The notes: a model not told the origin generated them from the sequence alone. A stretch of DNA of 57,511 nucleotides from Patescibacteria group bacterium (GCA_038065815.1 JBBTQF010000021.1:1-57511), one strand, 5' to 3'. Shown: positions 1 through 39,912, counted from the first letter of the stretch. Translations and numbers: made by a program.

Positions 1-2
1 CG

Positions 3-22264: not shown

Positions 22265-22269
22265 TTTAT

Positions 22270-24798: not shown

Positions 24799-24825
24799 TC
24801 TTCTCTCCAATTTGTCTCTTTTATT

Positions 24826-26688
24826 ATGACCACGTTTCCGACGCCACCTTCATACGACCACGACCATGAAAATGATGTCATTTATTTTGCGCGCACGAAT
24901 TTTCGTAATCAGATGCGCAAGTTTGGTATCAAAACGGATGACCGCCGCCGTCATATGTATCTGATCGGCAAAACCGGCGTCGGAAAAACGACGCTTCTTG
25001 AAAATATGGTACTGGCGGATATCTATAAGGGGCACGGACTTGCGATTGTGGATCCGCACGGAGATTTTGCCGAAAAAATTATTGATTACATTCCAGATCA
25101 TCGTATTGAAGATGTTGTCTACTTTAATCCGGCGGATATGGATTTTCCGACGTCGTTTAATATTTTGGAGTCAGAAGACGACACACACAAGCACTTGATC
25201 GCCAGTGGTCTGATGGGAGTCTTCAAAAAGATTTGGCCAGATGTGTGGAGCGCGCGCATGGAGCATATCATGAATAATTGTATTCTGGCCTTGCTCGAGA
25301 ATCCGGGGAACACATTGCTCGGCATCAATCGTATTCTCGTTGACCAACATTTTCGTCGTAGCATCATTGTCAATTTGCGAGACCCTGTGGTCAAGTCTTT
25401 TTGGATCACAGAGTTCGAGCAGTGGGACGTTAAATTTCGCAGTGAGGCTATCGCCCCAATTCAAAACAAAGTTGGTCAGTTTTTATCAACGTCACTCATT
25501 CGCAACATAGTCGGTCAACCAGTCTCCTCAATCGTACCGCGCGAGATGATGGACACGCGTAAAATTTTCATTATCAACCTTGCCAAGGGTCGCATTGGTG
25601 AGGACGCCTCGCGTCTCATGGGCGGTATGCTCATTACCAAAATGCAACTTTCGGCAATGGAGCGCGTGGATATGCTGGAAAAGGACCGTCAAGATTTCTA
25701 TCTCTATATTGACGAGTTTCAAAACTTTGCCACCGAGTCATTTGCGAACATCTTGTCCGAGGCGCGTAAATATCGCCTTGCTCTTATCATGGCTCACCAG
25801 TACGTAGAACAGCTTGAGGAGGAGGTCGCGGCGGCCGTGTTTGGCAACGTGGGGACGATAGTTTCATATCGTGTAGGCGCTGGAGACGCAGAGAAACTTG
25901 CCATCGAATTCGCTCCACGTTTTTTGGAGGAAGATTTGGTGAATCTTCCAAAGTTTCATATTTATTTGAAGCTGATGATTGACGGAATTGCCTCTGATGC
26001 GTTTTCAGCAACGACCTTGCCCCCGATTGCGGCGAAAACGAACAGTTTACAGCGTGTGATTGACGCCTCGCGCAGAAAGTATGGCCACAAGCGCGAGGAG
26101 GTTGAGAACTCAATTATTTCATGGAGCGAGTCAAGACCGGAAGGAGCAACACCCTCGGCAGTAGCGGCGCTTGGACTTCGAGAGGAGAAGCAAGGACGAA
26201 AGCTCAATGAGTATGAGTGTACGCGTTGTGGCAAGAAGTTACTTTTGCCAGTTGAGCTCGATAAAAGTCGTCCAATTTATTGTGAGACGTGTATTGAGTT
26301 GGTGAGGGCGGAACGCAAAGCAGGCAAACCACCCGAGGTAAAAAAACCGGAGGAAAAGAAGGAGTCCGAGACACCAAAACTCGCACAGACGGAAGCGATT
26401 CAGAAGCCGGTAGGTGAGACGATGTCGTTAAGTGCGCTTAAGGGAGATCCAAAAATAGAGGTCAAATCGGTTACAGCGGAGAAGCCGGCTCCTGTCGTGC
26501 CTACACCCTCCTCACCAAGCCCCACGAGCACAGAGGAACACAAACGCCGTCGCCGGCGTCATGGCGGAGGTGGAGCTCATCATTCGACAGGTTTGACCCC
26601 TTCAACAAGCTCCGGGTCTTCGACTGGTACAAGCACTTCACACACTCCCAGGCCGAGCTCCGGTGGGGACGAATTATTCCCGTGGTAA
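24826..26688 (+). CDS. VirD4/TraD-like (FtsK-HerA superfamily) P-loop ATPase with C-terminal zinc ribbon and disordered tail
   Basis: Walker A LIGKTGVGKTT, DPHGD, Walker B YLYIDEFQNF, and RKYRLALIMAHQY. A C-x2-C-x17-C-x2-C motif (CTRCGKKLLLPVELDKSRPIYCETC) is followed by a K/E/P/S/T-rich tail. Confidence 0.75.
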   Translation: MTTFPTPPSYDHDHENDVIYFARTNFRNQMRKFGIKTDDRRRHMYLIGKTGVGKTTLLENMVLADIYKGHGLAIVDPHGDFAEKIIDYIPDHRIEDVVYFNPADMDFPTSFNILESEDDTHKHLIASGLMGVFKKIWPDVWSARMEHIMNNCILALLENPGNTLLGINRILVDQHFRRSIIVNLRDPVVKSFWITEFEQWDVKFRSEAIAPIQNKVGQFLSTSLIRNIVGQPVSSIVPREMMDTRKIFIINLAKGRIGEDASRLMGGMLITKMQLSAMERVDMLEKDRQDFYLYIDEFQNFATESFANILSEARKYRLALIMAHQYVEQLEEEVAAAVFGNVGTIVSYRVGAGDAEKLAIEFAPRFLEEDLVNLPKFHIYLKLMIDGIASDAFSATTLPPIAAKTNSLQRVIDASRRKYGHKREEVENSIISWSESRPEGATPSAVAALGLREEKQGRKLNEYECTRCGKKLLLPVELDKSRPIYCETCIELVRAERKAGKPPEVKKPEEKKESETPKLAQTEAIQKPVGETMSLSALKGDPKIEVKSVTAEKPAPVVPTPSSPSPTSTEEHKRRRRRHGGGGAHHSTGLTPSTSSGSSTGTSTSHTPRPSSGGDELFPW

Positions 26689-26690
26689 GT

Positions 26691-28175
26691 ATGCCTTCAA
26701 ATCAAGATGACTACTCTGGAGCTTTCAGCTCCGTTCAACCACAGCCAGTGGTGGCGCCAAAGCAAGCGTCTGAATTTGAGGCGTTCGTGGCCCGTCGTCA
26801 CGAGCCGCCGGAAACGCTTCCGATGCGCGGGGCCGTCTCTGATGCAGATATTTCCTTGTTTGGTCAGACGAATTACAGTCGCGGTTATGCCTCGGCGCGT
26901 TATATTTTTGGCATCAAACGAAAGGATCGCCGTCGTCACCTGTACGTCATTGGTAAGAGCGGTGTTGGAAAAACAAAATTGCTGGAACAGCTTATTCGCG
27001 CGGACATTCATTATGGACACGGCGTCGGGGTGATTGATCCACACGGAGATTTGATCAGCGCCATCATCGAGTTTGTGCCAGAAAATCGCATCAATGATGT
27101 TGTGATCATAGATCCTGCGGATCGTGATTTTCCCATCTCATTCAACCCAATCGCCAACGTGGCGGATGAAGACAAACACATGGTGACGGATTCCATCATC
27201 GAGATTTTTAAAAAGCAATTTGCCAGCGATTGGTCACCACGCATTGAACACTTGCTTCGTTTCTCAACGCTGGCCATGATTGATTATCCGAAAGGCACTC
27301 TCAACGGCATGGTGTCTCTGCTTTCAAGTGGCCCTTATCGCAGTAAGGTGATTGAGCACATCAAGGACACTGTCGTCCGGCGTTTTTGGGCGATTGAGTT
27401 TCCAGAGTGGTCGCAACGTTATGATGCCGAGGCAGTGTCGCCGTTGCTCAACAAACTCGGGCAATTGCTTGCCGATCCCTTGATGCGCAATATTTTTGGT
27501 CAGCAAGAGAGCAAGGTTGACCTTTACGAGATCATGCGTAAAAAACAGATTTTACTGGTCAACCTTTCAAAGGGGCGTATTGGGGATGATAAAAGTGCCT
27601 TTTTCGGAGCGGTGCTCATCACCAAACTTTATCAAGCCTCGATGCAACGAATCCGACTGCCGGAAAAAGAGCGCACGCCATACTACTTGTACGTTGATGA
27701 GTTTCAGAATATTGCCACAAAGACTTTTGAGAATATTTTGGCCGAGGCACGCAAGTTTGGACTCAATCTCACAGTCGCCAATCAAAATCTTTCCCAGCTC
27801 TCGGCGAGTTTGCGTTCGTCACTGTTTGGCAACGTGGCCAGTATAGTCGTTTTTCAAATCAGCGCGGAAGACGCGGCGATTATGGAGATGGAGATGAAGC
27901 CCGTGTTTGAGGTGCAGGATATGATTAACTTATCCGAGCGCGAGGTTTATGTGAAGATGACTATTGATGGACGTCGTTGGGATCCATTCTCGGCAGATGT
28001 CCTTTCTGTCAATCCACCAAAACATACTCCATTCACGGAAAAGATTATGATGCAGAGTCGAGAGAAATATGCACGGCGTCGGGAAGAAGTGGAAAAACAG
28101 CTTGAGGGAGGCGATGCGGAAGAACAAAAAAGGCAGGAGGCGCAGAAGATTTCCATGGATGAGATTATTGTGTAA
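26691..28175 (+). CDS. VirD4/TraD-like P-loop ATPase, paralog of 24826..26688
   Basis: VIGKSGVGKTK, DPHGD, YLYVDEFQNI and RKFGLNLTVANQN, collinear with the upstream ATPase core. The start is ATG 26691, 3 nt after the upstream stop. Confidence 0.75.
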   Translation: MPSNQDDYSGAFSSVQPQPVVAPKQASEFEAFVARRHEPPETLPMRGAVSDADISLFGQTNYSRGYASARYIFGIKRKDRRRHLYVIGKSGVGKTKLLEQLIRADIHYGHGVGVIDPHGDLISAIIEFVPENRINDVVIIDPADRDFPISFNPIANVADEDKHMVTDSIIEIFKKQFASDWSPRIEHLLRFSTLAMIDYPKGTLNGMVSLLSSGPYRSKVIEHIKDTVVRRFWAIEFPEWSQRYDAEAVSPLLNKLGQLLADPLMRNIFGQQESKVDLYEIMRKKQILLVNLSKGRIGDDKSAFFGAVLITKLYQASMQRIRLPEKERTPYYLYVDEFQNIATKTFENILAEARKFGLNLTVANQNLSQLSASLRSSLFGNVASIVVFQISAEDAAIMEMEMKPVFEVQDMINLSEREVYVKMTIDGRRWDPFSADVLSVNPPKHTPFTEKIMMQSREKYARRREEVEKQLEGGDAEEQKRQEAQKISMDEIIV

Positions 28176-28186: not shown

Positions 28187-29209
28187 ATGCGCATTCTTGG
28201 AATTGAAACAAGCTGTGATGAAACGTCAGTGGCGATTGTCGAAGGCCAAGGGGAACGTGTCAGGCTGAAGGCGCAACTGACGAACTCACAGATGAAAGAG
28301 CACGCAAAATTTGGAGGCGTCGTGCCAGAAGTTGCGGCACGGCGTCACGTTGAGTTTCTGATGCCGATGCTTGAGCGGGTAGTCACTCGGGACGGAAAGG
28401 GAATTGATGCGGTTGCCGTGACCTACGGCCCTGGTCTTGTTGGAGCCCTGCGTGTTGGTGTTGAGTCCGCTAAGACGCTCGCAACCATCTGGGACAAACC
28501 GCTCATCGGAGTTAATCATCTCGAAGGACATATTTACGCAAATTGGCTTGATCGCACAGCGCGTCAAAAACCGATTGTCTTTCCAGCACTCTGTTTGATT
28601 GTTTCGGGTGGTCATACCGAGATTATTTTTATGCCCAGGCATGGGATGTATGAGCTCGTTGGCGAAACGCGCGACGATGCCGCTGGCGAGGCGTTTGATA
28701 AAGTCGCCAAGATGTTGGGACTCGGGTATCCCGGAGGTCCGGAGGTTGCTAAAATGGCGTTGAAAGGTGATGAGAAACGGTTTGATCTACCTCGCCCGAT
28801 GCTCGATTCCGATGACTTTGACTTTAGCTTTTCCGGGTTGAAGACGGCGGTGTTGTACACTATTCGTGAGCTCAAAAAAAATCCTTCTGCAAAAACAAAA
28901 GCTGATCTGTGTGCCAGTTTTCAGGCAGCTGCCGTTGGTGTGCTTGTCGGCAAAACAACCCGAGCAATTGAACAGATGAAACCAAAGACCGTTTTACTTG
29001 GAGGCGGTGTCTCTGCAAATGTGCAGTTACGAAAAAAGCTCGGCAATGCGATCAAGAAGAGCTCTCCTAAAACGCTCTATGTTATTCCGCCGATGAAATA
29101 TACGACCGACAACGCAGGTATGATCGCGGCGGCGGGCTACTTCAAACTTTTGCGTGATGAGACCTCCGACCCTCTCACACTCGAGGCGGATCCAAATCTT
29201 TCGTTATGA
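28187..29209 (+). CDS. tsaD: tRNA N6-adenosine threonylcarbamoyltransferase TsaD
   Basis: ILGIETSCDETSVAIV, VNHLEGHI, SGGHTEI and GGGVSAN motifs. Confidence 0.9.
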   Translation: MRILGIETSCDETSVAIVEGQGERVRLKAQLTNSQMKEHAKFGGVVPEVAARRHVEFLMPMLERVVTRDGKGIDAVAVTYGPGLVGALRVGVESAKTLATIWDKPLIGVNHLEGHIYANWLDRTARQKPIVFPALCLIVSGGHTEIIFMPRHGMYELVGETRDDAAGEAFDKVAKMLGLGYPGGPEVAKMALKGDEKRFDLPRPMLDSDDFDFSFSGLKTAVLYTIRELKKNPSAKTKADLCASFQAAAVGVLVGKTTRAIEQMKPKTVLLGGGVSANVQLRKKLGNAIKKSSPKTLYVIPPMKYTTDNAGMIAAAGYFKLLRDETSDPLTLEADPNLSL

Positions 29210-29727
29210 ATACGAAGCAAAACAATTACGCTTTTATTGATAGTCAGAACTTGAATTTGGCTATTCGTGAGCTTGGATGGAAGATAGATTTTGCTAAGTT
29301 TAGGGTTTATCTGAAAGAGAAGTACGGGGTTTCGCAGGCTTACATGTTTATTGGTTTTGTTTCCGGAAACCAGGCCCTCTATACTAGACTTCAGAAGTGT
29401 GGATTTATTTGCGTTTTTAAGCCGACGCTAGTTCATGCTGACGGAACAGTGAAAGGAAACTGCGATGCAGAATTGGTTTTGCATGCGATGATTGAATATC
29501 CGAATTACGATCAGGCCGTTATTGTAACGGGAGACGGCGATTTTCAGTGTCTTGCAAAGTATTTTGTTGAACAGGGAAAACTCAAGTGTTTGCTCATTCC
29601 CAATCGAAAAAAGTATTCGGCTCTATTGAAGTACAATATATTCTGGAAATTTCATCGTTTTATGAACGATTTGCAGACACTTCTTGAATACAAAAAGAAA
29701 GGGCCCCATAAGGACGGAACCTTATAG
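29206..29727 (+). CDS. NYN-domain (LabA-like) putative RNase
   Basis: NNYAFIDSQNLNLA... and VIVTGDGDFQCL are the acidic signature segments of NYN/LabA proteins. ATGA overlap with tsaD. Confidence 0.8.
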   Translation: MNTKQNNYAFIDSQNLNLAIRELGWKIDFAKFRVYLKEKYGVSQAYMFIGFVSGNQALYTRLQKCGFICVFKPTLVHADGTVKGNCDAELVLHAMIEYPNYDQAVIVTGDGDFQCLAKYFVEQGKLKCLLIPNRKKYSALLKYNIFWKFHRFMNDLQTLLEYKKKGPHKDGTL

Positions 29728-29778
29728 GGCTTGCTTTCCATTCGTGATCTATAAAGATGATACCAATAAGAGCGGAAT

Positions 29779-29859
29779 ATGTCAAACACTCCTAACTACG
29801 ACTCATCCCACTTCGCTCCTTCGGAGCTACGAGGGATTTCGTCAAAAATATATGAGTAA
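29779..29859 (+). other. 26-codon upstream ORF plus hairpin element preceding paralog 1
   Basis: Encodes MSNTPNYDSSHFAPSELRGISSKIYE*. The first 9 codons copy the paralog N-terminus, and the TAA stop overlaps the main ATG (29852) by 8 nt. Contains the hairpin GCTCC-TTC-GGAGC (29815-29827). A near-identical unit sits at 35269..35349. Confidence 0.5.
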
Positions 29860-31582
29860 GACCCCAATTTTTGACTCAAAAGTAAAAGCGATCCTCGACG
29901 CCACGCAGCCCGGCGAACGGGTGTGTGAAATGACCGGGGAGAAGTGGATGATGGATGCCGAGGAGATTTCTTGGTACAAAAAGTTCAACGTGCCACCGTC
30001 ACCGTTTTCGCCGCGCGTGCGCATGTGGCACATGACCAACTTTTTTGCCGTGTATCAGTGGTGGTGGAATAAGCATCCAGAAACCGGCGCGCCGGTGTTG
30101 AGCTATGTCCATCCGGCTTCGAAGATTAAGGTCTTGCCGGACAAGGAGTGGTTTGAGCGTGAGATGGCGGATTATGGACGTGCGATTGACTCGAGTCGAT
30201 CGTTCCTCGATCAATTCCGCGCGCTTCAACTTGACGTGCCGATTAACGCCACGCGCAACTTTGTTGATCCAGAGAATTCCATCGCCACGGTTTCGCTCGG
30301 CGATCGTAATGGTTATTTTGTCTCTGCGTCGCAATCGGAGGATTCGTTTTACTTGCTCGACACCCAGTTTGGCACGCGCACCATGGACGCTAACGGTGGC
30401 ATCAACGTGACGGATTCTTACCACATCAATCATTCGTTGCGTTTGCATGGCTGTCAGTTTATTTACGAGTCGCGCGATTGCATGAGCTCGTCTTTTTTGT
30501 TTGATTGTCGTAACTGCGAGTTCTGTTTTGGTGCCGCCAATAAACGTAATCGCAAATACGTCTGGTTTAATGAGCAGTTGAATAAGGAAGAATGGGAACG
30601 CCGACGGGCAGAAGTTGATCTTGGAAGCTATGCGCAAATGACTGCGACATTTGATCGTTTTACCAAATTGATTCGCGAAGAAGCCATTTGGCCGCAGAAT
30701 TTTAACGAAGGCTCAGAAGACTGCTTGGGCGATTACTTAATCAAGTGCAGTGATTTACAACATTGCTTGTACGGCATCGATAGTCACGGCGGATATTTTT
30801 GCTACGGTTTGTATAATGGCAATGACAACGCTTTTAGTTGCGCCATTCCTGGCGAGCATAATTATCAATCTGGGCCCGTTGGCAATACGTCGAACTCACG
30901 ATTTTCTTGTACGCTCGTGCGTTGTGACAATTTAGAGTACAGCATGAACTGCTACGACTGTACCGATTGTTTCGGTTGTGTCGGTCTGCGCAAAAAGCAA
31001 TTCCATATTTTTAACAAAGCGTATGCTGAAGAAGAATATTGGAAGGTCCTCGACGAGATCAAGTGCGCCATGCTTGAGCACGACGAATATGGCCGTCCGT
31101 TTCCGATCAACTTTGGATTCAACTATTATCCTGATTCCGGGCCGGTGATGTATTTTGGTGCGACGATTGAAGATTGGGATGTGGTCGGACGCGACCACTT
31201 CGAGGCCTCCGCCGACGGCGCATTTGGCACGCTGTCACTTGATGATCCGCGGATGCGCGAAGTCGATCAACTACCTGATCATATTCGCGACCTCGACGAC
31301 GACTGGATCGGTAAGCCTATTGCTGATCGCGCCATCAATCGCCCGTTCGCCCTTACCAAGGCTGAAGTCAACTATCTTAAAAAGTTTAACCTAGCCGCTC
31401 CGCGCCGACACTTCACCGCCCGCATGCTCGACTTGTTCTATTCTATGAGTAGCGGTCCCTTCATTGAGCAGACCTGTTTCTCCTGTGCCAAGCAGGTTGT
31501 CATGGCCACCAATCGCGCGTATCCTGAGCGTAAGGTTTATTGCAATGTATGTTATTTGAAGTATCTTGAAGTTCACGGATAA
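29852..31582 (+). CDS. Cys-rich repeat protein, tandem paralog 1 of 5 (uncharacterised family)
   Basis: MSKTPIFDSKVKAILDA..., FLFDCRNCEFCFGAANKRNRKYVWFNEQLNKEEW, CYDCTDCFGCVGLRKKQFHIFNKAYAEEEYW, and the C-terminal CFSC-x18-CNVCYLKYLE. The listed 29684 start is an out-of-frame-conserved extension. Confidence 0.8.
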   Translation: MSKTPIFDSKVKAILDATQPGERVCEMTGEKWMMDAEEISWYKKFNVPPSPFSPRVRMWHMTNFFAVYQWWWNKHPETGAPVLSYVHPASKIKVLPDKEWFEREMADYGRAIDSSRSFLDQFRALQLDVPINATRNFVDPENSIATVSLGDRNGYFVSASQSEDSFYLLDTQFGTRTMDANGGINVTDSYHINHSLRLHGCQFIYESRDCMSSSFLFDCRNCEFCFGAANKRNRKYVWFNEQLNKEEWERRRAEVDLGSYAQMTATFDRFTKLIREEAIWPQNFNEGSEDCLGDYLIKCSDLQHCLYGIDSHGGYFCYGLYNGNDNAFSCAIPGEHNYQSGPVGNTSNSRFSCTLVRCDNLEYSMNCYDCTDCFGCVGLRKKQFHIFNKAYAEEEYWKVLDEIKCAMLEHDEYGRPFPINFGFNYYPDSGPVMYFGATIEDWDVVGRDHFEASADGAFGTLSLDDPRMREVDQLPDHIRDLDDDWIGKPIADRAINRPFALTKAEVNYLKKFNLAAPRRHFTARMLDLFYSMSSGPFIEQTCFSCAKQVVMATNRAYPERKVYCNVCYLKYLEVHG

Positions 31583-31606
31583 AACCAAAACCCCGCTTGC
31601 GCGGGG
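31581..31606 (-). terminator. intrinsic terminator for the minus-strand RNA
   Basis: The minus strand reads CCCCGC-GCAA-GCGGGG followed by UUUUGGUUUU. On the plus strand the hairpin has no U-tract after it. Confidence 0.7.
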
Positions 31607-31693
31607 AGTTGGCAGTCTCGATTCGGTACGAGTGACCTGGATTGCTACCTAAATCAAGAGTATCCTAATTTAGGATTGTCGTCAAACTGTTTG

Positions 31694-31764
31694 TGGTGGA
31701 GGCGCGGGGATTTGAACCCCGGAAACCATGGGTAGCAATCCAGGTTTCGTATCAAACCGCCCCC
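31694..31764 (-). ncRNA. tRNA-like element (Ala-type acceptor, T-arm, encoded CCA, no D-arm)
   Basis: The minus strand reads GGGGGCG GUUUGAUAC GAAACC-UGG-AUUGCUAC-CCA-U-GGUUUC CGGGG-UUCAAAU-CCCCG CGCCUCC A CCA. It has a 7-bp acceptor stem with G3.U70, a perfect T-arm with a consensus-like loop, and a long arm whose loop carries UGC. It is only 71 nt and lacks a D stem-loop. Confidence 0.5.
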
Positions 31765-31776
31765 ACCACAGTAAAA

Positions 31777-31782
31777 ATTATA
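31777..31782 (-). promoter_or_regulatory. -10 box (TATAAT) for the minus-strand tRNA-like transcript
   Basis: The minus strand reads TTGGGA, 18 nt, TATAAT, 6 nt, then UGUGGU-GGGGGCG. This puts the predicted start at about 31770. Confidence 0.45.
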
Positions 31783-31789
31783 TTAAAAT

Positions 31790-33529
31790 ATGGCTTCCAC
31801 TCCCAACTACGATGCTAAAGTAAAAGCGATCCTCGATGCCACAACGCTTGGTGAGCGTGTTTGTGCGATCACAGGAGAGAAGTGGACGCAGGACTCCAAG
31901 GAGCTGGAGATTTACCGTCGCTTCAATGTACCGCCACTGAAGATTTGCACCAACGCTTTATGGAAGTGGATGGCATTTTATGATGCCGGATTTCAATTTT
32001 GGTGGAATAAGCACGCCGAGACGGGGAAGCCGGTGCTCAGTTTTCATCATCCCGCTTCCGGGATCCGCGTTCTGCCCGACGTCGAATGGCATGCTAAAGA
32101 TTTTTCCACCATCACTGCCGATGTCGATCCGACCAAATCGTTTTTCGATCAGCTTCGCGCTCTCGAACTCTGTGTTCCTTTTATGGCGACGTTTGATCGC
32201 CAGCCACCGGAGAACTCGATCACTCTTTTCTCCTTTGGCGATCGCAATAGCTACTTCACTTTCGCATGTCAGTCCGAGCGCTGTTTCTTTTCTGCTGGCG
32301 CCTTTCAAGCTGAAGGTTCGTCGCTCTTGTGGCTCACCAATCAAATCACCGACAGTCATTGGATTTTGAAATCCGACCGTCTGTTTCGCTGTCGCTATGT
32401 TCGTGAGTCGTTGGATTGTATCGACAGTGCCTTTTTGTTTGACTGCCGTAATTGCCAAAATTGTTTTGGGGTCGTCAACAAACGCAATCGTCAATACCTG
32501 TTCATGAATGAGCAGTTGAGCAGGGCCGAGTACGAAGCCCGAATGTTGACGATTGATCTTGGCAAGCGATCGGAAGTGGAAAAATACAGCCAGCAATTCG
32601 ATGCACTGCTCGCCAAGGAAGGCGTTTGGCCGGAAAACTTCAACGTCAACACCCAAGAATCCGTTGGTGAATATTTGGTTAACGCTGTGCGCTCACAGCA
32701 ATGCTTTGCCGCCGCAGACGCTCCGACCGATCAGTATCGCAGTGCGTGGTCTTATGGACTCAATCAACACAACGCTAACATGTGGGGATCGATCGACAGC
32801 AGTGATTGCTATATGTCCGTGGCTTGTCCAAACTCGAGCAAAAGTAATTTTTCTTACCGCTCGTTCCGTTTGGATAACTGCGAGTTCTGCGTCATGTCGT
32901 CGGATCTACGCGATTGTTTTGGGTGTGTAGGTCTGAAGAAAAAACGGTTTTGTATTTTCAACAAACAGTACACGGAGGAGGAATATTGGAGAATCGTCGA
33001 TGAAATCAAATCGGCGATGTTGGAGAGGGGAGAATATGGAACGTATTTGCCAACTGCGTTGTCGACGACTTTCGTGCCAGAGTCTGGCGCGGTGGTCTAT
33101 ACCGGCGCTTCACCCGAGGAGCTGGCCATGTTTGGAGGGAATTTGTTTGGCGCCGAAGACGATGGAGCCACCGGAGCCGATCGCATTGATCCAAGCAAGG
33201 CTCGCAAGCGCGAGGACATTCCGGACGCGATTGATGATTTAACGGACGAATGGGTCGGCGTACCCATTTACGACGAAGTTTCCAAACGCACTTTCACCTT
33301 TTTGCGTCCAGAAGTGGAGCATTACCGCCGCCTGCGTGTTGCCCCGCCAAACATCCATTTTATTCGCCGTCTGCATGAAGTTTCTCACGCCGGCCAGGTG
33401 GCGGCCTTCGAACCTGCCAGCTGTACCAAATGCCAACAAGCGGTCACCATCGCCAAAAATATTCGCTACCCCCACCGCCGCATTTATTGCAGAGCCTGTT
33501 ATACGGCGTTTGTGGAAAAGAATGGATGA
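31790..33529 (+). CDS. Cys-rich repeat protein, tandem paralog 2 of 5
   Basis: MASTPNYDAKVKAILDA..., FLFDCRNCQNCFGVVNKRNRQYLFMNEQL, CFGCVGLKKKRFCIFNKQYTEEEYW, and CTKC-x18-CRACYTAFVEKNG. Confidence 0.8.
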   Translation: MASTPNYDAKVKAILDATTLGERVCAITGEKWTQDSKELEIYRRFNVPPLKICTNALWKWMAFYDAGFQFWWNKHAETGKPVLSFHHPASGIRVLPDVEWHAKDFSTITADVDPTKSFFDQLRALELCVPFMATFDRQPPENSITLFSFGDRNSYFTFACQSERCFFSAGAFQAEGSSLLWLTNQITDSHWILKSDRLFRCRYVRESLDCIDSAFLFDCRNCQNCFGVVNKRNRQYLFMNEQLSRAEYEARMLTIDLGKRSEVEKYSQQFDALLAKEGVWPENFNVNTQESVGEYLVNAVRSQQCFAAADAPTDQYRSAWSYGLNQHNANMWGSIDSSDCYMSVACPNSSKSNFSYRSFRLDNCEFCVMSSDLRDCFGCVGLKKKRFCIFNKQYTEEEYWRIVDEIKSAMLERGEYGTYLPTALSTTFVPESGAVVYTGASPEELAMFGGNLFGAEDDGATGADRIDPSKARKREDIPDAIDDLTDEWVGVPIYDEVSKRTFTFLRPEVEHYRRLRVAPPNIHFIRRLHEVSHAGQVAAFEPASCTKCQQAVTIAKNIRYPHRRIYCRACYTAFVEKNG

Positions 33530-33530
33530 T

Positions 33531-35267
33531 ATGAGTAACACCCCCAACTACGACGCCAAAGTAAAAGCCATCCTCGACGGGCTCACGCCCGGGGAGCGGG
33601 TTTGTGCTATCACGGGCGAGAAGTGGATGATGACGGAGGAGGAGATTGGGTGGTACAGGAAGTTCAATGTCCCGCCGTCGAAGTATTCTCCAAGTGCGCG
33701 CATCAAACTGGTTATGGGATACTTTGTTGTTTTTGACATGTGGTACAACAAGCACGCCGACACGGGCGCGCCAATTATCTCCACAACCCACCCCGCCTCA
33801 GGCATTCGTGTCCTCCCAGATTTGGAATGGTTTAATCGAGATTTCATTTCTCACGGACAAAATTTGCAGGCATCAAATTCTTTTTTTGACCAACTCTACG
33901 CACTGAGTCGACGTGTTCCTGTTGCCGCTACCTTTAATTATAAGGTCCCGGAAAACTCGGTGGCTTTTATTTCGTTTGGTGATCAAGACAGCTACTTTGT
34001 GCTGGCCTGTAAGTCCAAGCGCTCCTTCTTTTGCGGGAATGCCCATGATGTGGAGGATTCGGCTGAACTCGTCGCCGTGGAAAATGTCAGACAGTCATAC
34101 GCAGTGGTGCACAGCCAGCGTATTTTTAATTGCCGTTTTTTGCTGGAATGTTATGACTGCATAAACTTGCATTTTCTTTTTGATTGCCGAAACTGTGAGT
34201 TCTGTTTTGGTGCTACCAATCAACGGAATAAAAAGTATTTATGGTTCAATGAGCAGTTGAGCAAGGAAGAGTGGGAGCGACGTTTTGCCGAGATTGACCT
34301 TCGCTCACGTGAGGCACTTGATGAGATACAGCAACATTTTTCGGAGTTGATGCAGACACAAACTGTCTGGCCGGAGAATTTTAATGTCAATGCCGTCGAC
34401 TCAAGCGGAGAATACATTATTGAGTCGACAGATGTGCGTGACGGCTACTACATCATGCGTGGCTGTCGTAATTTAGATAACAGCTGCTACGCCTTTGGCT
34501 TACCGTCGCATGATTGCTACACCGTCTGCGCGCCGATTGGCGCCTCGGATTGTTATTACGGGATTGGACAAGAGCAGTGCTCACAGGTGCGCTTCGCCTT
34601 GTCTATCCTAGCTCGTAACATGAATACCGAATATTGCAATGTTTGTTTTGATTGCGAGAATTGCTTTGGTTGTATCGGTCTGCGTCACAAGAAGTTTTGT
34701 ATTTTGAACAAGCAATACACGGAAGAGGAGTACTGGAAGGTCCTTGATGAACTGAAGTGTGCCATGCTTGACCGTGGAGAATACGGCGAGCTGCCACCTA
34801 TGAAGTTTGGGACTCAACACTGGAGCGGCTCTGGTGCTCGGGTGTTGTACGGAGCGAGCAAGGATGAGTGTTTGAAGCTTGGTGCCGTCGACTTTCCGGT
34901 CGGCGCAGAGGGGTCTGAAGGCCCAATTGTTGATTCCGCGTCCCTGCATTCACTCGACTCAATTCCAGACCGCATCGACTCAATCGAAGAGGTGACTGGC
35001 AAACCGTACTTCGATCCCGCTGCAAATCGTCGTTTTAGTTATCAAAAGACCGAGCTCGAACTGTACGCCAGGCTCGGTGTAGCACCGCCGCGCAAACATC
35101 CGACGCGTCGACTGACAGATCATTACCACGAAATGAGCATGGCTGTTTTTGAGGACGGACACTGTGAAAAGTGCAACCAACAAATACGCGTTGCCAAGAA
35201 TATGACGTATCCAAATCGAAAATTATATTGCAAATCCTGTTATTTGGCGTTTATCGAAACTCGCTAA
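33531..35267 (+). CDS. Cys-rich repeat protein, tandem paralog 3 of 5
   Basis: MSNTPNYDAKVKAILDG..., starting 1 nt after the paralog-2 stop (junction AATGGATGATATGAGT). FLFDCRNCEFCFGATNQRNKKYLWFNEQL, CFDCENCFGCIGLRHKKFCILNKQYTEEEYW, and CEKC-x18-CKSCYLAFIE. Confidence 0.8.
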   Translation: MSNTPNYDAKVKAILDGLTPGERVCAITGEKWMMTEEEIGWYRKFNVPPSKYSPSARIKLVMGYFVVFDMWYNKHADTGAPIISTTHPASGIRVLPDLEWFNRDFISHGQNLQASNSFFDQLYALSRRVPVAATFNYKVPENSVAFISFGDQDSYFVLACKSKRSFFCGNAHDVEDSAELVAVENVRQSYAVVHSQRIFNCRFLLECYDCINLHFLFDCRNCEFCFGATNQRNKKYLWFNEQLSKEEWERRFAEIDLRSREALDEIQQHFSELMQTQTVWPENFNVNAVDSSGEYIIESTDVRDGYYIMRGCRNLDNSCYAFGLPSHDCYTVCAPIGASDCYYGIGQEQCSQVRFALSILARNMNTEYCNVCFDCENCFGCIGLRHKKFCILNKQYTEEEYWKVLDELKCAMLDRGEYGELPPMKFGTQHWSGSGARVLYGASKDECLKLGAVDFPVGAEGSEGPIVDSASLHSLDSIPDRIDSIEEVTGKPYFDPAANRRFSYQKTELELYARLGVAPPRKHPTRRLTDHYHEMSMAVFEDGHCEKCNQQIRVAKNMTYPNRKLYCKSCYLAFIETR

Positions 35268-35268
35268 T

Positions 35269-35349
35269 ATGTCCAAAACGCCCAATTACGACGCATCCCA
35301 CTTCGCTCTTGCAGAGCTACGTAAGGACTGCGTCAAAATTTATGAATAG
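35269..35349 (+). other. 26-codon upstream ORF plus hairpin element preceding paralog 4
   Basis: Encodes MSKTPNYDASHFALAELRKDCVKIYE*. Same 73-nt offset to the main ATG (35342) as at paralog 1. The hairpin is GCTCT-TGC-AGAGC (35305-35317). Confidence 0.5.
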
Positions 35350-37072
35350 GACTCCAAATTTTGACTTGAAGGTAAAAGCCATCCTCGACGCTACCAAACC
35401 CGGCGAGCGGGTGTGTCCGATTTCGGGGGAAACGTGGATACTCACGAGCGAAGACATTGAGCGGTATCGCGGTTGGGGAGTGCCACCGCCGATTTATTCG
35501 CCAACGATTCGCATGAAAGAGCTCGCCGGTTGGGGCGCGGGGATTGATTTGTGGTGGAAGCCGCATTTTCAAACCGGTAAAGCGATTCTGTCTGGCATCC
35601 ATCCAGATTCTTTTAGTCCAGCCATAACTGACAAAGAGTGGTTTGAAAAAGATTGGGGTGCGGAGCATCCGCTCGATGTTGATCTTGCCAAACCCATCCT
35701 AGAGCAAACCAAGCCGCTGTTCGATCGCGTGCCATATCCTGCGCTATCAACCCACGGTTCAGTTAATTGTGTTGGATGTGGCATAGTTGACTGTGTTGAC
35801 TCCTACATGGTTTTTGGCAGTAAAATGGTCAAAGATAGTTGGTACGCCTTCCGCACCCAGTACAGCGAACGGGTGATGGACGCGCCGTTTTTACTACGCT
35901 GTGAAAACGTTTTTGCTTCGGCCAAGTCTGTTAGCTGCAATAACTGCGTCAGCATTTTTGAGTGCAACCAGTGCATCAACTCGGCATTTTTGTTTGATTG
36001 TCAGAATTGCGAAGAGTGTTTTTGTTCATCAAACTTGCGCCACAAGCAGTACGTTTTCATGAATGAACAATTGAACAAAGAAGAATATCAAAAGCGCATG
36101 GCGGAAATTGATTTGTCCTCGACAGCACAGTTTGAACAATGGAAAACTACCTTCCGTCATCTGGTAGGTGAAAAAACCATTTGGCCGGAAAACTTCAGTG
36201 TCAATGTGCAGAACTGTGTTGGGGAGGGAATGATGGATTGTCTCGACTGTTCTGGATTTTTGATGGACAACTCCCGTAATATTCAAAACGGCTGGAACAT
36301 TTTTGATTCCGAGCACTTGGATACCGTGGTCATCTCCTATAATTCCAACGATTGTTATGGCGTCAGTGTGGCCCTCGCTTCGCACAACATCAAGTTTTCT
36401 TTCGTTGCCTACCAGTCGCAGGATTGCGAGTACGTGGTCAATTGCTACAACTGCGAGCATTGTTTTGGTTGTGTCGGACTCAACCGCAAGAAGTTTAATA
36501 TTTTCAACAAGCAGTACAGTGAACAAGATTATTGGCGACTTGTCGACGAAATCAAATGTGCCATGCTGGAGCGGGGAGAGTATGGACGATTTTTCCCGGC
36601 GGCTTATTCTCCGCTCGGCATGAAATACGGCTACGGCTATGTCGTTGCTCCGTTGACGAAGGAAGAACTCACCAAGCTCGGAGGACTCGATTTGGATCCA
36701 ATCGCGGGAATGCGCTTCGCGCCGTACGACGTTAACGCTCCGACATCAAATGTTGACGAAGTCCCTGATCGGATTGTGGATATAACTGATGAATGGGTCG
36801 GGAAGCAATTTTTTGACGCTGAAGCCAATCGGCGTTATGCAGTAAACGCTCAAGAGCTTGCTTATCGAAAAGAACACGGCTATCCATTCCCGCTTCGGCA
36901 CTACACGTCGCGGCTGAAGGATATAGTCGCTTCCTGCAACGGACCCATCCAGGAGTCAGCGCGTTGTGCCAAGTGCAACAAGGAGATTATGACCAGCTCA
37001 AGCACTATTTACTCTAAACGCACCGTTTATTGTAAGGCGTGTTATTTAAAGTTTATTGAATCTAACGGATAA
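35342..37072 (+). CDS. Cys-rich repeat protein, tandem paralog 4 of 5
   Basis: MNRTPNFDLKVKAILDA..., FLFDCQNCEECFCSSNLRHKQYVFMNEQL, CYNCEHCFGCVGLNRKKFNIFNKQYSEQDYW, and CAKC-x18-CKACYLKFIESNG. Confidence 0.8.
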   Translation: MNRTPNFDLKVKAILDATKPGERVCPISGETWILTSEDIERYRGWGVPPPIYSPTIRMKELAGWGAGIDLWWKPHFQTGKAILSGIHPDSFSPAITDKEWFEKDWGAEHPLDVDLAKPILEQTKPLFDRVPYPALSTHGSVNCVGCGIVDCVDSYMVFGSKMVKDSWYAFRTQYSERVMDAPFLLRCENVFASAKSVSCNNCVSIFECNQCINSAFLFDCQNCEECFCSSNLRHKQYVFMNEQLNKEEYQKRMAEIDLSSTAQFEQWKTTFRHLVGEKTIWPENFSVNVQNCVGEGMMDCLDCSGFLMDNSRNIQNGWNIFDSEHLDTVVISYNSNDCYGVSVALASHNIKFSFVAYQSQDCEYVVNCYNCEHCFGCVGLNRKKFNIFNKQYSEQDYWRLVDEIKCAMLERGEYGRFFPAAYSPLGMKYGYGYVVAPLTKEELTKLGGLDLDPIAGMRFAPYDVNAPTSNVDEVPDRIVDITDEWVGKQFFDAEANRRYAVNAQELAYRKEHGYPFPLRHYTSRLKDIVASCNGPIQESARCAKCNKEIMTSSSTIYSKRTVYCKACYLKFIESNG

Positions 37073-37074
37073 GT

Positions 37075-37442
37075 ATGTCCCTGTCTAGAAATAACTTTGC
37101 TTACATCGATGGTGCTAATCTCTACAAAGGTGTGGCTGGAGACGGCTGGAAACTTGATTATCGTCGCTTTCGTGTCTGGTTGGAAGAAAAGTACGGTGTG
37201 AGCTGTTGTTGATGTTTATGAACAAAATTGTGACAAGGCCATTATTGTTTCTGGAGATGGTGACTATGCCAGTTTGGTTGTATTTTTGAGTGAAAAAAGA
37301 AAGTTGGTCTCGATTCTTTCTCCAAACAAGCACTGTTCTATTCTTCTGAAAAGGACGAACGTGGCGATTGGATACCTGATGGATTATCGACCTCGTATAG
37401 GCCAAAAATGAAAAGGCCCCCGATGCAGACGAAACTGCATAA
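37075..37442 (+). pseudogene. NYN-domain gene remnant (internal deletion plus frameshifts)
   Basis: MSLSRNNFAYIDGANLYKGVAGDGWKLDYRRFRVWLEEKYGVSCC* aligns with the first 43 aa of the intact NYN gene. The frame then shifts to ..DVYEQNCDKAIIVSGDGDYASLVVFLSEKRKLVSILSPNK.., and shifts again to KKAPDADETA* (compare KKKGPHKDGTL*). About 50 central codons are missing. Confidence 0.75.
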
Positions 37443-37496
37443 GGGTCCTTTTCGTAGTGATGACTATAAGATACCATTCTTTCAGAATTTGTCAAT

Positions 37497-37637
37497 ATGT
37501 CCAACACACCGGTCAAAATGGAAAACACCTGCTTTGATTGCGGCAAGCCGGTCACCACTTACGTCAACAATCTTTTTACCGAGCGTCATGTATACTGTCG
37601 AGAGGATTACCTCAAGTTTATCGAACAAAATGGCTGA
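37497..37637 (+). CDS. 46-aa collapsed paralog (N-terminal 5 residues fused to the C-terminal zinc ribbon)
   Basis: Encodes MSNTPVKMENTCFDCGKPVTTYVNNLFTERHVYCREDYLKFIEQNG*. It keeps the family junction (..AATGGCTGATATGTCC) with paralog 5, and the last Cys of the ribbon is replaced by Asp. It may be a remnant rather than a functional gene. Confidence 0.4.
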   Translation: MSNTPVKMENTCFDCGKPVTTYVNNLFTERHVYCREDYLKFIEQNG

Positions 37638-37638
37638 T

Positions 37639-39255
37639 ATGTCCAAGACTCCGAACTTCGACAGCAAAATTAAAATGATTATTGACGTCATGCCGCAAGA
37701 TAATGATGCCGAAATTTGTCGCAAATTTCAGGTACCGCCGATCGGCATGGAGCCGGATAAATTGCTTGACTATTTGAATGGCTTCAACACCGGTTTGGCC
37801 TTTTTCTGGAAGCCTCACATGACGACCGGTCGGCCGCTTCTCTCCGCGATTCATCCGGACAATCCGATTCCCATCGTCAGCGAAGACGAGTGGGCTTCGG
37901 CGGATTATACTAGTGCGGCGCAAGAGATTGATCCGACTCGATCAGTGATGGATCAACTGTGGGACTTGGTAACGACCGTTCCCCATAATCCAACACGCTG
38001 TGTGCAAGCCGTTAACTCCATTGCCATTGGGTGTGTTGGCGTACAGAATTGCTATTGCGTCGCCGGTTCGCATTTACTTAACCGTTGTTTTTATACCTAC
38101 GCCCTTATTAAAGGGGAGGATTGCATTGACGTCGGCAACGGTATTCAGGTGGCGCGATCTTATCAGTGCGGCGGGAGCAACGAGATCAGTGATTGTCAGT
38201 TTGTTTATGAGTCGCGGGCCTGTCTGAACTCCTCATTTCTGTTTGACTGCTGGAATTGCGACTCCTGCTTCGGCGCCACGAATCAGCGCCATAAAAAATA
38301 TATTTGGTTCAACGAGCAGTTAAGCAAAGAGGAATATCAACAACGTGTTGGTCAGATAGATTTATCCGATGCTGACGTCGTTGAAGCATACTGGCAAAAG
38401 TTTTTCACGCTTTGGAAATCGCAAGGTGTCTGGCCGTTCGCCTTTTCCGTTGGTAACACCGAGGCGGAAGGGGAACATCTGTTTGGGTGCGTTCGTTGTG
38501 ACGGGTGTTTTTTGCAGAGTAAATCGACAGACTGTTATCGTTGTCGGTTTGGTCTGGAAAATAGCGGTTGCGCCTATACCTCTGGCGGAGGTTACGAACA
38601 AGATTGTTACCTGTCTACCGGCGGAGGCTACGGGGCAAAAAACAAATTTTGCGCCGGTACAAACAAGTGTATTTCTTGTGAGTACTGTCACAACTGTCGT
38701 GACTGCGAAAATTGTTTTGCTTGCGTTGGTCTTCAGCGTAAAAAATTCTGCGTCTTCAATAAGCAATACACGGAAGAGGAATACTGGCCGCTGGTAGACG
38801 AACTCAAAACTAGGATGCTTGCGAGTGGGGAGTATGGCCGTTTTTTTGAGGCCAAATTTTCTCCGTCAGGATTCCAATACTCTGCCGGGGAACTCTACGT
38901 CAGCTATTCCGCGCAACGTCTGCGTGAATACGATGCGCCGACGTTTGATCCTCGCCGTGGTCAGGTGCTCGGCCCGCAACCAACAGACCAGGCGATCTAT
39001 GACCCTGAAATTGGGCGGTACTACACGATCACTTCAGTCGAGAGACAGATGTATAAGGCCAAGCATTGGCCACTGCCGCGTAAGCACTTTGTTACACGGC
39101 TGACCGAACTCATCCGATTGTCTAATTCACCAATCGTTGAGGAGGCCGTCTGTGGATTGTGCGCGCAAGCGATAGTCACTTATAGAAATTTTTCTTTTCC
39201 CGAGCGGACGGTGTATTGTAATGAGTGTTATCTTAAGTTTTTGGAGACTAAATAA
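37639..39255 (+). CDS. Cys-rich repeat protein, tandem paralog 5 of 5 (shorter, divergent)
   Basis: MSKTPNFDSKIKMIIDV..., FLFDCWNCDSCFGATNQRHKKYIWFNEQL, CENCFACVGLQRKKFCVFNKQYTEEEYW, and CGLC-x18-CNECYLKFLETK. It lacks the ERVC..TGEKW block and part of the C-terminal region. Confidence 0.75.
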   Translation: MSKTPNFDSKIKMIIDVMPQDNDAEICRKFQVPPIGMEPDKLLDYLNGFNTGLAFFWKPHMTTGRPLLSAIHPDNPIPIVSEDEWASADYTSAAQEIDPTRSVMDQLWDLVTTVPHNPTRCVQAVNSIAIGCVGVQNCYCVAGSHLLNRCFYTYALIKGEDCIDVGNGIQVARSYQCGGSNEISDCQFVYESRACLNSSFLFDCWNCDSCFGATNQRHKKYIWFNEQLSKEEYQQRVGQIDLSDADVVEAYWQKFFTLWKSQGVWPFAFSVGNTEAEGEHLFGCVRCDGCFLQSKSTDCYRCRFGLENSGCAYTSGGGYEQDCYLSTGGGYGAKNKFCAGTNKCISCEYCHNCRDCENCFACVGLQRKKFCVFNKQYTEEEYWPLVDELKTRMLASGEYGRFFEAKFSPSGFQYSAGELYVSYSAQRLREYDAPTFDPRRGQVLGPQPTDQAIYDPEIGRYYTITSVERQMYKAKHWPLPRKHFVTRLTELIRLSNSPIVEEAVCGLCAQAIVTYRNFSFPERTVYCNECYLKFLETK

Positions 39256-39264: not shown

Positions 39265-39912
39265 ATGTCAGAAAAGATTTCTTTCACTACGTCCGACGGC
39301 GTCACAATCGTCGGTAATTTGTACAAAGGCGGATCGGAACGCTTTGCTATTTTTTTGCACATGCGGCCTTCGACTAAAGAAGGTTGGGACGCCCTGGCGA
39401 CGAAACTGCAGGGTGAGCACGAGGTTACTGGATTGGCGATCGACGAACGCGGGCATGGGGAGTCGACCATGGGTGGGAAGCTCGATTATGAGACGTTTAC
39501 CGACGACAAGGCCAAGATACTCGACGTCGAAGCGGCGTTTGAGTATTTAAAAAGCCTCGGAGCGCGTGAGGAAAATACGATTATCATCGGCGGATCGATC
39601 GGCGCGAATTTGGCAATTTGGTTTTCGGTTCAGCATCCTGGAATGAAAAAGGTGATCGCTCTTTCGCCGGGGCTGTTGTATCGCGGAGTGTCGACTGATG
39701 ATAAAATTACACAGTTGCATCCAGATCAAAAAGTCTTGTTAGTCGCCAGCGATGACGACGAGCACCGCGCCTATGAAGGCGTGCAGGCCCTGCATCAGTT
39801 GAATCCAGACAAGACAGATTTGTGGTTGTTGAGCGGCGCGGGTCATGCGGAAACGATGCTCACCAAACAAGCGGATTTGACGGAGCGGATTATTGATTGG
39901 CTAAGTAAATAG
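39265..39912 (+). CDS. alpha/beta-fold hydrolase
   Basis: HMRPS oxyanion-type segment, nucleophile elbow GGSIGA (G-x-S-x-G), late Asp (VASDDDEH) and His (GAGHAE). Confidence 0.7.
   Translation: MSEKISFTTSDGVTIVGNLYKGGSERFAIFLHMRPSTKEGWDALATKLQGEHEVTGLAIDERGHGESTMGGKLDYETFTDDKAKILDVEAAFEYLKSLGAREENTIIIGGSIGANLAIWFSVQHPGMKKVIALSPGLLYRGVSTDDKITQLHPDQKVLLVASDDDEHRAYEGVQALHQLNPDKTDLWLLSGAGHAETMLTKQADLTERIIDWLSK

Follow-up and report, generated by a model that had tools for sequence, protein, structure and literature searches.

Results

A tandem array of an undescribed protein family

We analysed a stretch of 57,511 nucleotides from an Uhrbacteria-like Patescibacteria group bacterium with a tiny genome (GCA_038065815.1, JBBTQF010000021.1:1-57511; hereafter the window), in which five genes of one cysteine-rich protein family, undescribed in any database that we searched, follow one another on the plus strand. 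The five paralogues (c1 to c5) encode proteins of 538-579 aa with pairwise identities of 33-45%; c2-c5 are 36-44% identical to c1. Their MAFFT alignment has 101 invariant columns, which take in an N-terminal M-x-x-TP-x-(Y/F)D-x-K-x-K, an FLFDC.NC..CF...NEQL block, a second block about 151 residues after the first (CF.C(V/I)GL...NK.Y.E..YW..DE.K..ML..EYG), and a C-terminal C-x2-C-x18-C-x2-C. The copies and the remains of a sixth gene are as follows, with related loci in other genomes designated by L numbers.

29852-31582, plus strand: c1, 576 aa; 887 bits against the family hidden Markov model (HMM); orthologues 78-82% identical in L076, L073 and L015
31790-33529, plus strand: c2, 579 aa, the copy modelled with AlphaFold2; orthologues 70-75% identical in L001, L002, L003 and L076
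33531-35267, plus strand: c3, 578 aa, starting 1 nt past the c2 stop; orthologue 66% identical in L003
35342-37072, plus strand: c4, 576 aa; orthologues 69-72% identical in L076 and L001
37497-37637, plus strand: relic of a deleted family gene (mini-ORF), matched in tblastn by residues ~486-576 of c1, c4 and c5 (E=1e-7 to 4e-9)
37639-39255, plus strand: c5, 538 aa, a subtype without residues ~18-32 and ~470-492; similarly shortened orthologue in L002, 62-65% identical

In the relic, the five initial codons (MSNTP) of a family gene are joined to the final ~40, and the C-terminal zinc-finger segment is retained without its last Cys. The 1-nt junction between c2 and c3 reads AATGGATGATATG, and the one ahead of c5 reads AATGGCTGATATG. 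Since this arrangement (stop, 1 nt, ATG), made of conserved terminal codons, recurs in the arrays of many other genomes, it is a feature of the whole family, and it looks like a translational-coupling arrangement. Identity between the copies at the DNA level is 60-76% and confined to the conserved blocks, with no tract above 76%.

Predicted architecture

The AlphaFold2 model of c2, based on an alignment of 122 sequences, has a mean predicted local distance difference test (pLDDT) of 92.6 and a predicted template modelling score of 0.92. It comprises an alpha/beta N-domain (residues 1-130), a first solenoid (~150-235) with a helical cap (245-277), a second solenoid (~279-390) followed by helices (396-450), and a C-terminal beta-rich domain with a zinc finger at its end. 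The predicted architecture is a degenerate N-terminal treble-clef, whose zinc site is lost in this subfamily, and two homologous, narrow, helix-capped beta-solenoids lined with Cys and Ser; a helical linker then leads to the CxxC-x18-CxxC zinc finger of the C-terminus. Cys or Ser occurs with a period of three residues and harmonics at 6 and 12, and each solenoid would be closed by a conserved CxxCxxCFG...N-x-Q cap plus a helix. The two halves align with each other (hhalign, residues 152-255 against 303-406, probability 99.1%, E=1.9e-18), and an N-terminal E..(W/I)Y.KFNVPP...R motif is repeated near the C-terminus (95% probability). Conservation is seen in the caps and termini, whereas differences between paralogues fall in the linker (~421-500) and the rungs of the solenoids (~161-200 and ~301-360), which are nevertheless kept within each orthogroup.

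The terminal modules are of the type described by zf_Tbcl (PF13451), zf_Tbcl_2 (PF23477) and the CxxC-x17-CxxC model TIGR04272, whose cutoffs are 24, 27 and 36 bits, respectively. The C-terminal quartet (C545, C548, C567, C570) is present in all five window copies and 94-97% conserved among 122 aligned members of the wide family, the set from which all wide-family conservation figures derive. The N-terminal quartet (C25, C28, C53, C56) is found in ~60% of the wide family (58-63% for C28, C53 and C56). In the window, c1-c4 lack three of its four Cys, keeping C25 alone, and c5 lacks the whole segment, although the E..(F/W)Y.K...P.P motif of zf_Tbcl is retained at the N-terminus. Among distant members, P0188 reaches 27.8 bits against zf_Tbcl_2 and the others 11.8-19.4, and P0268 has the best zf_Tbcl score, 23.1 bits. 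One Kerfeldbacteria member is annotated as a zinc-binding domain-containing protein. The known domains of this type span 35-50 residues, mostly in small proteins, whereas the family modules flank a body of ~480 residues that no model covers. Small Methanosarcina proteins that contain a domain of the CxxC-x17-CxxC type bind zinc (PMC12704099).

Apart from Cys, the residues conserved across the wide family are mostly Gly, Pro, aromatic residues and the capping Asn. No catalytic-looking cluster appears among the conserved residues of the 122 members, and none of them has a solenoid His, Asp or Glu that is at least 80% conserved across the set. The window proteins are acidic (pI 5.4-5.9), have 22-33 Cys each, and lack any signal peptide, lipobox, or membrane or hydrophobic segment. 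We take the family proteins, of about 550-600 aa, to be soluble.

The predicted fold appears to have no solved relative. Foldseek searches of PDB and BFVD with the full c2 model gave only weak solenoid matches, the best of them to LpxD (4e79; E=5e-4, probability 0.16, TM-score 0.07-0.09), and the N-domain modelled alone (pLDDT 89) had no match below E=0.9. The narrow solenoid, with ~12 residues per coil and a Cys/Ser interior, recalls the Tenebrio-type insect antifreeze protein (TmAFP), a right-handed beta-helix lined with Cys. The family proteins, however, are much larger and presumably cytoplasmic, have extra domains and lack a TCT ice-binding face; nor was TmAFP among the top 50 Foldseek PDB matches of the c2 model.

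A widespread family of old orthogroups

A profile search of an index of 5.8 billion proteins returned 475 family matches, and HMMER, run exhaustively over 1.84 billion representatives of clusters at 50% identity, gave 3,569 clusters at E<=1e-3, 1,426 of them at E<=1e-30. Nearly all full-length members among the 150 listed have 530-600 aa. They come from Candidatus Uhrbacteria, Patescibacteria, Kerfeldbacteria and metagenomes, and those with a name are mostly called hypothetical protein; in the NCBI taxonomy, Uhrbacteria and Kerfeldbacteria are separate candidate phyla inside the Parcubacteria group. Beyond the hints of terminal zinc fingers, the family body has no match in Pfam, NCBIfam, PADLOC, PHROGs or a PDB sequence search. 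The family was not found in phage records, save for one marginal match at the end of an IMG/VR contig, and literature searches on the family, zf_Tbcl, DUF8128 and Uhrbacteria paralogues retrieved no description of it.

Tandem arrays are the rule for this family. We scanned one genome from each GTDB species and obtained 203 stretches with a match, from which we kept 66 loci with 183 family copies in 23 metagenome-assembled genomes (MAGs); all the loci compared here were picked around family genes. Same-strand arrays range from two to at least nine genes, separated by 1-nt gaps or overlapping, and the number of copies reaches at least 26 per MAG.

Orthologues in different genomes are 62-82% identical (from 78-82% for c1, through 70-75% for c2, 69-72% for c4 and up to 66% for c3, to 62-65% for c5), versus 31-50% between paralogues within genomes. 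The number of nonsynonymous substitutions per site (dN) between orthologues is 0.13-0.27, and that of synonymous ones (dS) is saturated in seven of eight pairs, so that a proper dN/dS is not computable. The high identity of orthologues, the saturated dS and the lack of near-identical tracts indicate that the duplications are ancient and that the copies are old orthogroups under purifying selection. The membership and order of the arrays shift between genomes, as in birth-and-death evolution.

An initial annotation of the window, made from the sequence alone, had anticipated much of this. It recognized five homologous same-strand genes with all the motif blocks that it listed, an internal duplication, copies that are old rather than recent, and a family without functional annotation that would occur as hypothetical proteins in genomes of the candidate phyla radiation (CPR), and all of these agree with our results, including the blank Pfam, NCBIfam and PDB searches and the Uhrbacteria members. 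Its suggestion of a Cys-lined solenoid is consistent with the model and with the Cys/Ser periodicity. In its C-terminal ribbon the Cys quartet is right, but the spacing given as x18-YC is one off, the Tyr being itself the 18th residue.

A conserved block of ATPase genes upstream of the array

The initial annotation did not mention a conserved link with three genes that lie upstream of the array and encode a DUF8128-like membrane protein and two ATPases resembling type IV coupling proteins (T4CPs).

23209-24798, plus strand: DUF8128-like protein, its single membrane segment N-terminal (hydrophobic stretch around residue 27, KD19 2.14)
24826-26688, plus strand: T4CP-like ATPase 1 of the TrwB/VirD4/TraD type (Pfam TrwB_AAD_bind, 5.8e-12; TraG-D_C)
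26682-28175, plus strand: T4CP-like ATPase 2, without membrane segment (Pfam TrwB_AAD_bind and T4SS-DNA_transf; PDB TrwB 1e9r, 4e-7)

The order DUF8128, ATPase 1, ATPase 2, array was found in 14 of the 23 scanned genomes, as well as in L073 and in the Kerfeldbacteria locus L067, which has five copies; overall, the array is directly downstream of the ATPase pair in at least 16 genomes. The coordinates place the first copy 20-130 nt after ATPase 2 in eight loci and 200-930 nt after it in four, and in the window and L076 other genes stand in between. With secDF upstream of the block and uppP downstream of the array, this organisation is conserved across Uhrbacteria and Kerfeldbacteria. The DUF8128-like gene is syntenic in L002, L008, L015, L020, L028, L063 and L067; its L073 orthologue carries PF26449 (DUF8128), and the window protein matches positions 65-356 of phrog_5156. 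The latter is a single profile of 824 positions spanning DUF8128 and the ATPase, so that some (pro)phage genomes have both parts in a single protein. ATPase 1 has a C-terminal CxxC-x17-CxxC finger (residues 458-490) of the same type as the family C-terminus. It is zf_Tbcl_2-like, and its scores (E=3.8e-4 and 20.5 bits for zf_Tbcl_2, 19.7 bits for TIGR04272) lie below the cutoffs. No gene for the channel of a type IV secretion system (T4SS; virB4, virB6 or virB8) was found among the window ORFs scanned (15273-28175, 39265-39912 and 41516-42211).

The window also has a tsaD gene (tRNA t6A synthesis, 28187-29209) that overlaps the following NYN-domain gene by 4 nt; none of the other related loci compared here has tsaD in this place, after ATPase 2.

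tRNA-like RNAs in the arrays

The gap between c1 and c2 contains a tRNA-like gene and a second small RNA, a pair that has homologues in four other loci.

31694-31764, minus strand: tRNA-like gene of 71 nt, with G3:U70, a T-arm, an encoded CCA and the loop AUUGCUAC, and no D-arm
31583-31655, minus strand: partner small RNA, with an intrinsic terminator at 31591-31606 and its 5' part at 31636-31649
31583-31790, minus strand, in the window, and L005:2020-2292, L076:8300-8520, L021:5700-5980 and L077:735-1050: the pair and its homologues

The tRNA-like gene has an anticodon-like arm, a TATAAT box upstream (31777-31782), a score of 99.6 bits against its own covariance model and a fold z-score of -6.1. 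ARAGORN calls neither a tRNA nor a tmRNA here. The Rfam tmRNA model (RF00023, gathering score 47) gives 39.5 bits and matches the tRNA-like ends only, 328 model positions being replaced by 26 nt. The partner RNA probably has its own promoter, judging by -35/-10 boxes, which the homologues show more clearly than the window does. All 14 nt of its segment 31636-31649 are complementary to the anticodon-like arm (duplex of -25.5 kcal/mol), and a pairing of 13-16 nt is kept through compensatory changes in L005, L076, L077 and L021. Cognate duplexes have energies of -21 to -25.5 kcal/mol, versus -6 to -17 when the window or L021 RNA is combined with a non-cognate partner; the nearly identical partner segments of L005, L076 and L077 are interchangeable.

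We considered and dropped the view that this gene is a reduced or permuted tmRNA. No tag ORF is readable before the terminator, the helices do not follow one another in a permuted order, and relatives that have a D-arm are reported as unusual tRNAs. The 14-nt inverted repeat, which might be taken for helix P2 of a tmRNA, fits better as a pairing of the arm with a separately promoted small RNA.

The covariance model and ARAGORN together delineate a broader class, whose 12 members have in common G3:U70, the loop U33-U34-N-N-Y37-A38-C-C and a ...UCCACCA terminus. Among them are tRNA-like genes of 75-78 nt at the following positions, most of which are no more than 150 nt away from a family gene.

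L021:13106-13180
L023:5450-5525
L024:9249-9323
L051:3604-3681
L061:8236-8312
L073:11894-11969 and L073:13939-14014

ARAGORN labels these longer genes Leu, Ser, Pro, Gly or Ala, and the ones called Leu or Ser lack a long variable arm. In Rfam, the genes of L021, L023 and L051 and L073:11894 (via an identical copy in L074) score better as tmRNA ends than as tRNA, and L073:13939 (via L074) is a tRNA at just 36.5 bits; across the class, the tmRNA matches cover the two ends only and reach 22-42 bits, all below the gathering score. Like the tRNA-like domain of tmRNA and tRNA-Ala, the array RNAs have G3:U70, a T-arm, an ACCA end and a reduced or absent D-arm. Unlike tmRNA, they have no mRNA-like domain or tag ORF and are not circularly permuted, and they differ from both in an anticodon-like arm with U33-U34-N-N, to which the partner RNA pairs, and with a pyrimidine at position 37 (11 of 11 aligned members) where canonical tRNAs have a purine. 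The window RNA further departs from a canonical tRNA in its missing D-arm. As G3:U70 is the established alanine identity element, one would expect the class to be acceptors of alanine irrespective of the anticodon. Nine of the 12 tRNA-like genes lie within 150 nt of a family gene, versus 1 of 17 canonical tRNAs (Fisher p=2e-4), a test that is biased because the loci were chosen around family genes.

Three neighbourhoods of such genes have further features. Between family copies of L073 (16673-18103) and L074 (7378-8808), a gene near two G3:U70 tRNA-like genes encodes a 476-aa fusion of a cyclodipeptide synthase (CDPS) domain with a solute-binding domain; cyclodipeptide synthases use aminoacyl-tRNA. 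In the metagenomic contig L077, the tRNA-like gene and its partner (789-1050, plus strand) lie inside a putative ORF of the opposite strand (1-2534, minus strand), which would encode a protein of 844 aa whose start resembles a signal peptide. The tRNA-like gene of L076 has an Rfam DUF3800-IX RNA right next to it (8534-8597, minus strand; 49 bits, gathering score 36.8); no function is known for the RNA motifs associated with DUF3800 (PMC5737381).

Two copies in the window are also preceded by a conserved leader.

29779-29859, plus strand: c1 leader, an upstream ORF (uORF) of 26 codons (MSNTPNYD...), whose stop overlaps the c1 start codon, and a hairpin at 29805-29837
35269-35349, plus strand: c4 leader, a uORF of 26 codons and a hairpin at 35295-35329, homologous to the c1 leader (84% identical)

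At least 12 other loci likewise have this leader of ~80 nt, with a variable hairpin loop length, upstream of family genes. The putative hairpin shows almost no covariation, because the sequence is too conserved.

NYN genes and their antisense RNAs

The window has one intact NYN gene and the remains of another, each accompanied by an antisense RNA unit.

29206-29727, plus strand: intact NYN gene, 173 aa (Pfam NYN, 3.8e-12; PADLOC LabA-like NYN nuclease, 4.8e-6)
29693-29785, minus strand: antisense small-RNA unit convergent with the NYN gene, with a promoter at 29785-29757 and a terminator of hairpin plus U-run over the NYN stop codon
37075-37351, plus strand: NYN pseudogene in two frames with its middle deleted (tblastn 4e-11 and 1e-6), retaining residues 1-43 at 37075-37203 and residues 100-142 at 37226-37351
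37405-37495, minus strand: second NYN-associated antisense RNA unit (promoter TTGACA-16-TATCTT with TG), 81% identical to L033:9906-10014

The promoter of the first unit (TTGACA-17-TATCAT with TG) has 11 of 12 matches, and its terminator stem has 11 bp. Every NYN gene that we examined is met at its 3' end by such a minus-strand promoter-terminator unit. The promoter is kept and the terminator stem, which overlaps the last NYN codons, covaries in six loci (the two of the window and those in L033, L009, L076 and L023). The layout resembles that of 3'-overlapping antisense antitoxins.

The NYN gene, its decayed second copy and the RNA elements in the array had been noticed before us and are real, yet the proposal that NYN genes seeded the array is not supported. 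NYN genes adjoin family genes in 8 of ~80 related loci, usually just upstream of a copy, with homologues in L009, L023, L033 (two), L060 (two) and L076; they are missing from most arrays and from every distant single-copy relative. We read the NYN gene and its antisense RNA as a self-contained passenger cassette that comes and goes, possibly of a toxin-antitoxin-like nature, and not as the founder of the array.

Discussion

The architecture, the age and selection of the copies, their genomic organisation and the two associations, with the T4CP-like ATPase block and with the tRNA-like RNAs, are solid results from which we infer a function for the family. The reading that we tentatively prefer, possible rather than probable, is a repertoire of binding or cargo modules that serves an ATPase machine. 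The family proteins would be rigid, non-enzymatic binding modules, whose paralogue-specific solenoid surfaces might each recognise a different partner, and which would be produced jointly from arrays of co-oriented and often translationally coupled genes. The founding array would be the distal part of an operon-like block opening with the DUF8128 membrane protein and the two soluble T4CP-like ATPases. The paralogues could then be clients of this membrane-anchored motor, either as cargo or as adaptors that select cargo, and would dock via the invariant zinc-finger modules at their ends, one of which is present in ATPase 1 too. The NYN genes and antisense RNAs would be passengers of this system.

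The basis of this mechanism is a survey of Patescibacteria that found 5,713 VirD4-like T4CP homologues in 2,918 genomes, about two per genome, of which only 148 were near virB4, leading its authors to raise a possible exaptation (PMC12102498). The family is thus a concrete candidate partner for the paired VirD4-like ATPases that almost all Patescibacteria carry away from a T4SS (PMC12102498). Tandem diverged paralogues beside ATPases of the FtsK/VirD4 superfamily, in episymbionts with reduced genomes, also recall the VirB2 pilin arrays of Patescibacteria T4SS, which average 25% identity (PMC12102498), and the effector arsenals of T4SS and type VII secretion systems. Our case differs from these in that no virB4 or other T4SS channel gene was found nearby (among the ORFs scanned), in ATPases without membrane segment, and in large, folded, predicted zinc-containing family proteins without a known translocation signal, whose link with the ATPases is one of synteny only. 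The genetic linkage expected of clients of a coupling-protein ATPase is seen for the main array and not for the other arrays.

Several observations weigh against our preference. The link with the ATPases consists of gene order and one shared small domain, and the zinc-finger matches of the window proteins are below the curated cutoffs or absent. Most arrays of the same genomes are located away from the ATPase block, and in other lineages no ATPase lies within 8-10 kb of the arrays or single copies of L070, L080, L081, L084 and L085. Even in the window, tsaD and the NYN gene separate ATPase 2 from c1. Both tRNA-like and NYN RNase genes are enriched in the arrays, which points to RNA rather than to translocation. 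That the proteins are not enzymes is a weak argument, drawn from the absence of a conserved polar or catalytic-looking cluster. Finally, a passage in PMC12102498 cites a T4CP homologue as non-essential for epibiotic growth in Southlakia.

The main rival, which we rank second and find doubtful, puts RNA at the centre. The paralogues would bind or use the alanine-type tRNA-like RNAs, as ribonucleoprotein (RNP) partners, sensors of tRNA mimics or aminoacyl-tRNA-dependent transferases; their treble-clef modules would contact RNA, each paralogue being matched to a different RNA or target, and the same RNA-based scheme would take in the NYN RNases and the structured leaders. The proximity of tRNA-like genes to family genes, the recurrence of NYN genes in arrays, the conserved hairpin leader before a subset of copies, the CDPS-domain gene inside the L073/L074 array and the zinc-finger modules at both protein ends are all consistent with this. 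However, proteins this acidic would be unusual RNA binders, Foldseek found no known RNA-binding fold, and the proximity test carries the bias of locus choice. The distribution does not fit well either: tRNA-like genes are far fewer than protein copies, none was seen in the arrays of L002, L003, L007, L017, L022, L039, L067 and L084, and the retrieved pieces of L077 and L079 contain the RNA but no family gene.

It is unlikely that the proteins serve metal or redox chemistry, with the CxxCxxC(xxC) coils and the Cys ladder binding Zn, Fe or Fe-S clusters so as to store or buffer them or to transfer electrons. Among Fe-S motifs CxxCxxC is a classical one, the proteins are rich in Cys, the cap Cys are well conserved in the wide family (89-96% for C210, C219, C222 and C225; 75-96% for C370, C376, C379 and C388), and the family gene of L070 lies among three radical-SAM genes. 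Yet most ladder positions swap Cys with Ser, Leu, Ile or Val, as packing residues would, and the window copies, which have no match to a ferredoxin or metallothionein profile, have Ala, Ser, Thr or Val in place of the fourth cap Cys (position 228). Storage would also leave dozens of conserved orthogroups unexplained.

Just as unlikely, in our estimate, is that arrays, G3:U70 tRNA-like RNAs and DUF8128/T4CP-like ATPases form one undescribed system specific to Parcubacteria, in which each paralogue would pair with an alanine-accepting tRNA mimic or another RNA and a membrane-anchored motor of the FtsK/VirD4 type would handle the complexes. If this were true, its purposes might be the non-ribosomal use of an Ala-tRNA-like donor or the delivery of RNP cargo to a host cell.

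A role in defence or conflict, with diversified sensor paralogues, an NYN nuclease and HerA/FtsK-type ATPases acting against phages or competitors, seems improbable. Conflict systems often have multi-copy diversified families, the NYN protein matches the LabA-like nuclease model of PADLOC, the ATPases match the mad8, HerA and DndH models, and AbiEii and NTase_sub_bind genes occupy neighbouring positions in L067 and L076. But the ATPase matches reflect a shared P-loop superfamily only, the family proteins have no PADLOC match (c1, c2 and c4 lack a defence-component match at E<=0.1), and NYN is missing from most arrays. Each orthogroup is long conserved under strong purifying selection, and the block stands among housekeeping genes (secDF, uppP) and is kept across two candidate phyla.

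A little more improbable still is that the paralogues are acyltransferases of the left-handed beta-helix (LbH) type with paralogue-specific substrates. LbH proteins would share with the model a parallel beta-solenoid with small residues pointing inward, and LpxD, GlmU, LpxA, gamma-carbonic anhydrase, PglB and phage hexapeptide proteins were the sole structural neighbours of the model (best E=5e-4); glycosyltransferase and Asn-synthase genes lie near the L070 copy. The likeness is very low, however, with Foldseek probabilities of at most 0.16 and TM-scores of at most 0.1, and none of the five window copies or of ten distant members matches Hexapep (PF00132-type) at E<=1. The periodicity is 3/6/12 and not 18, no conserved cluster of His, Asp and Glu or other catalytic residues marks the solenoids in the wide family, and each chain has two solenoids, both with their own CxxCxxCFG cap and helix, between zinc-finger modules at either end.

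Largely refuted, and the least credible of all, is the earlier proposal of a locally amplified variable-surface family that is currently diversifying by unequal crossing-over: it has in its favour the tandem same-strand copies, the deletion relic, the pseudogene and the conserved junctions, which are indeed present between c2 and c3 and ahead of c5, but orthologues are closer than paralogues, dS is saturated and dN low, no near-identical DNA tracts could drive ongoing recombination, the junction motif consists of conserved terminal codons found in many genomes, and the proteins are acidic, are under purifying selection and have no signal peptide, lipobox or membrane segment.

Episymbiotic CPR genomes have ~1 Mb, yet some Uhrbacteria give at least 26 genes to this one family, by our estimate roughly 4-5% of their coding capacity. 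Since purifying selection maintains the copies as separate orthogroups, their role must be a central one in the way these bacteria live. The alanine-identity tRNA-like genes, one subtype of which has a partner RNA complementary to its arm, could be a new form of tRNA mimicry or regulation. Large arrays also extend to a more distant lineage: in L084 (1-17400), with no T4CP-like ATPase within 10 kb, at least ten family members stand in an array beside a ribosomal-protein operon, and a gene for an LCM-type methyltransferase is inserted among them.

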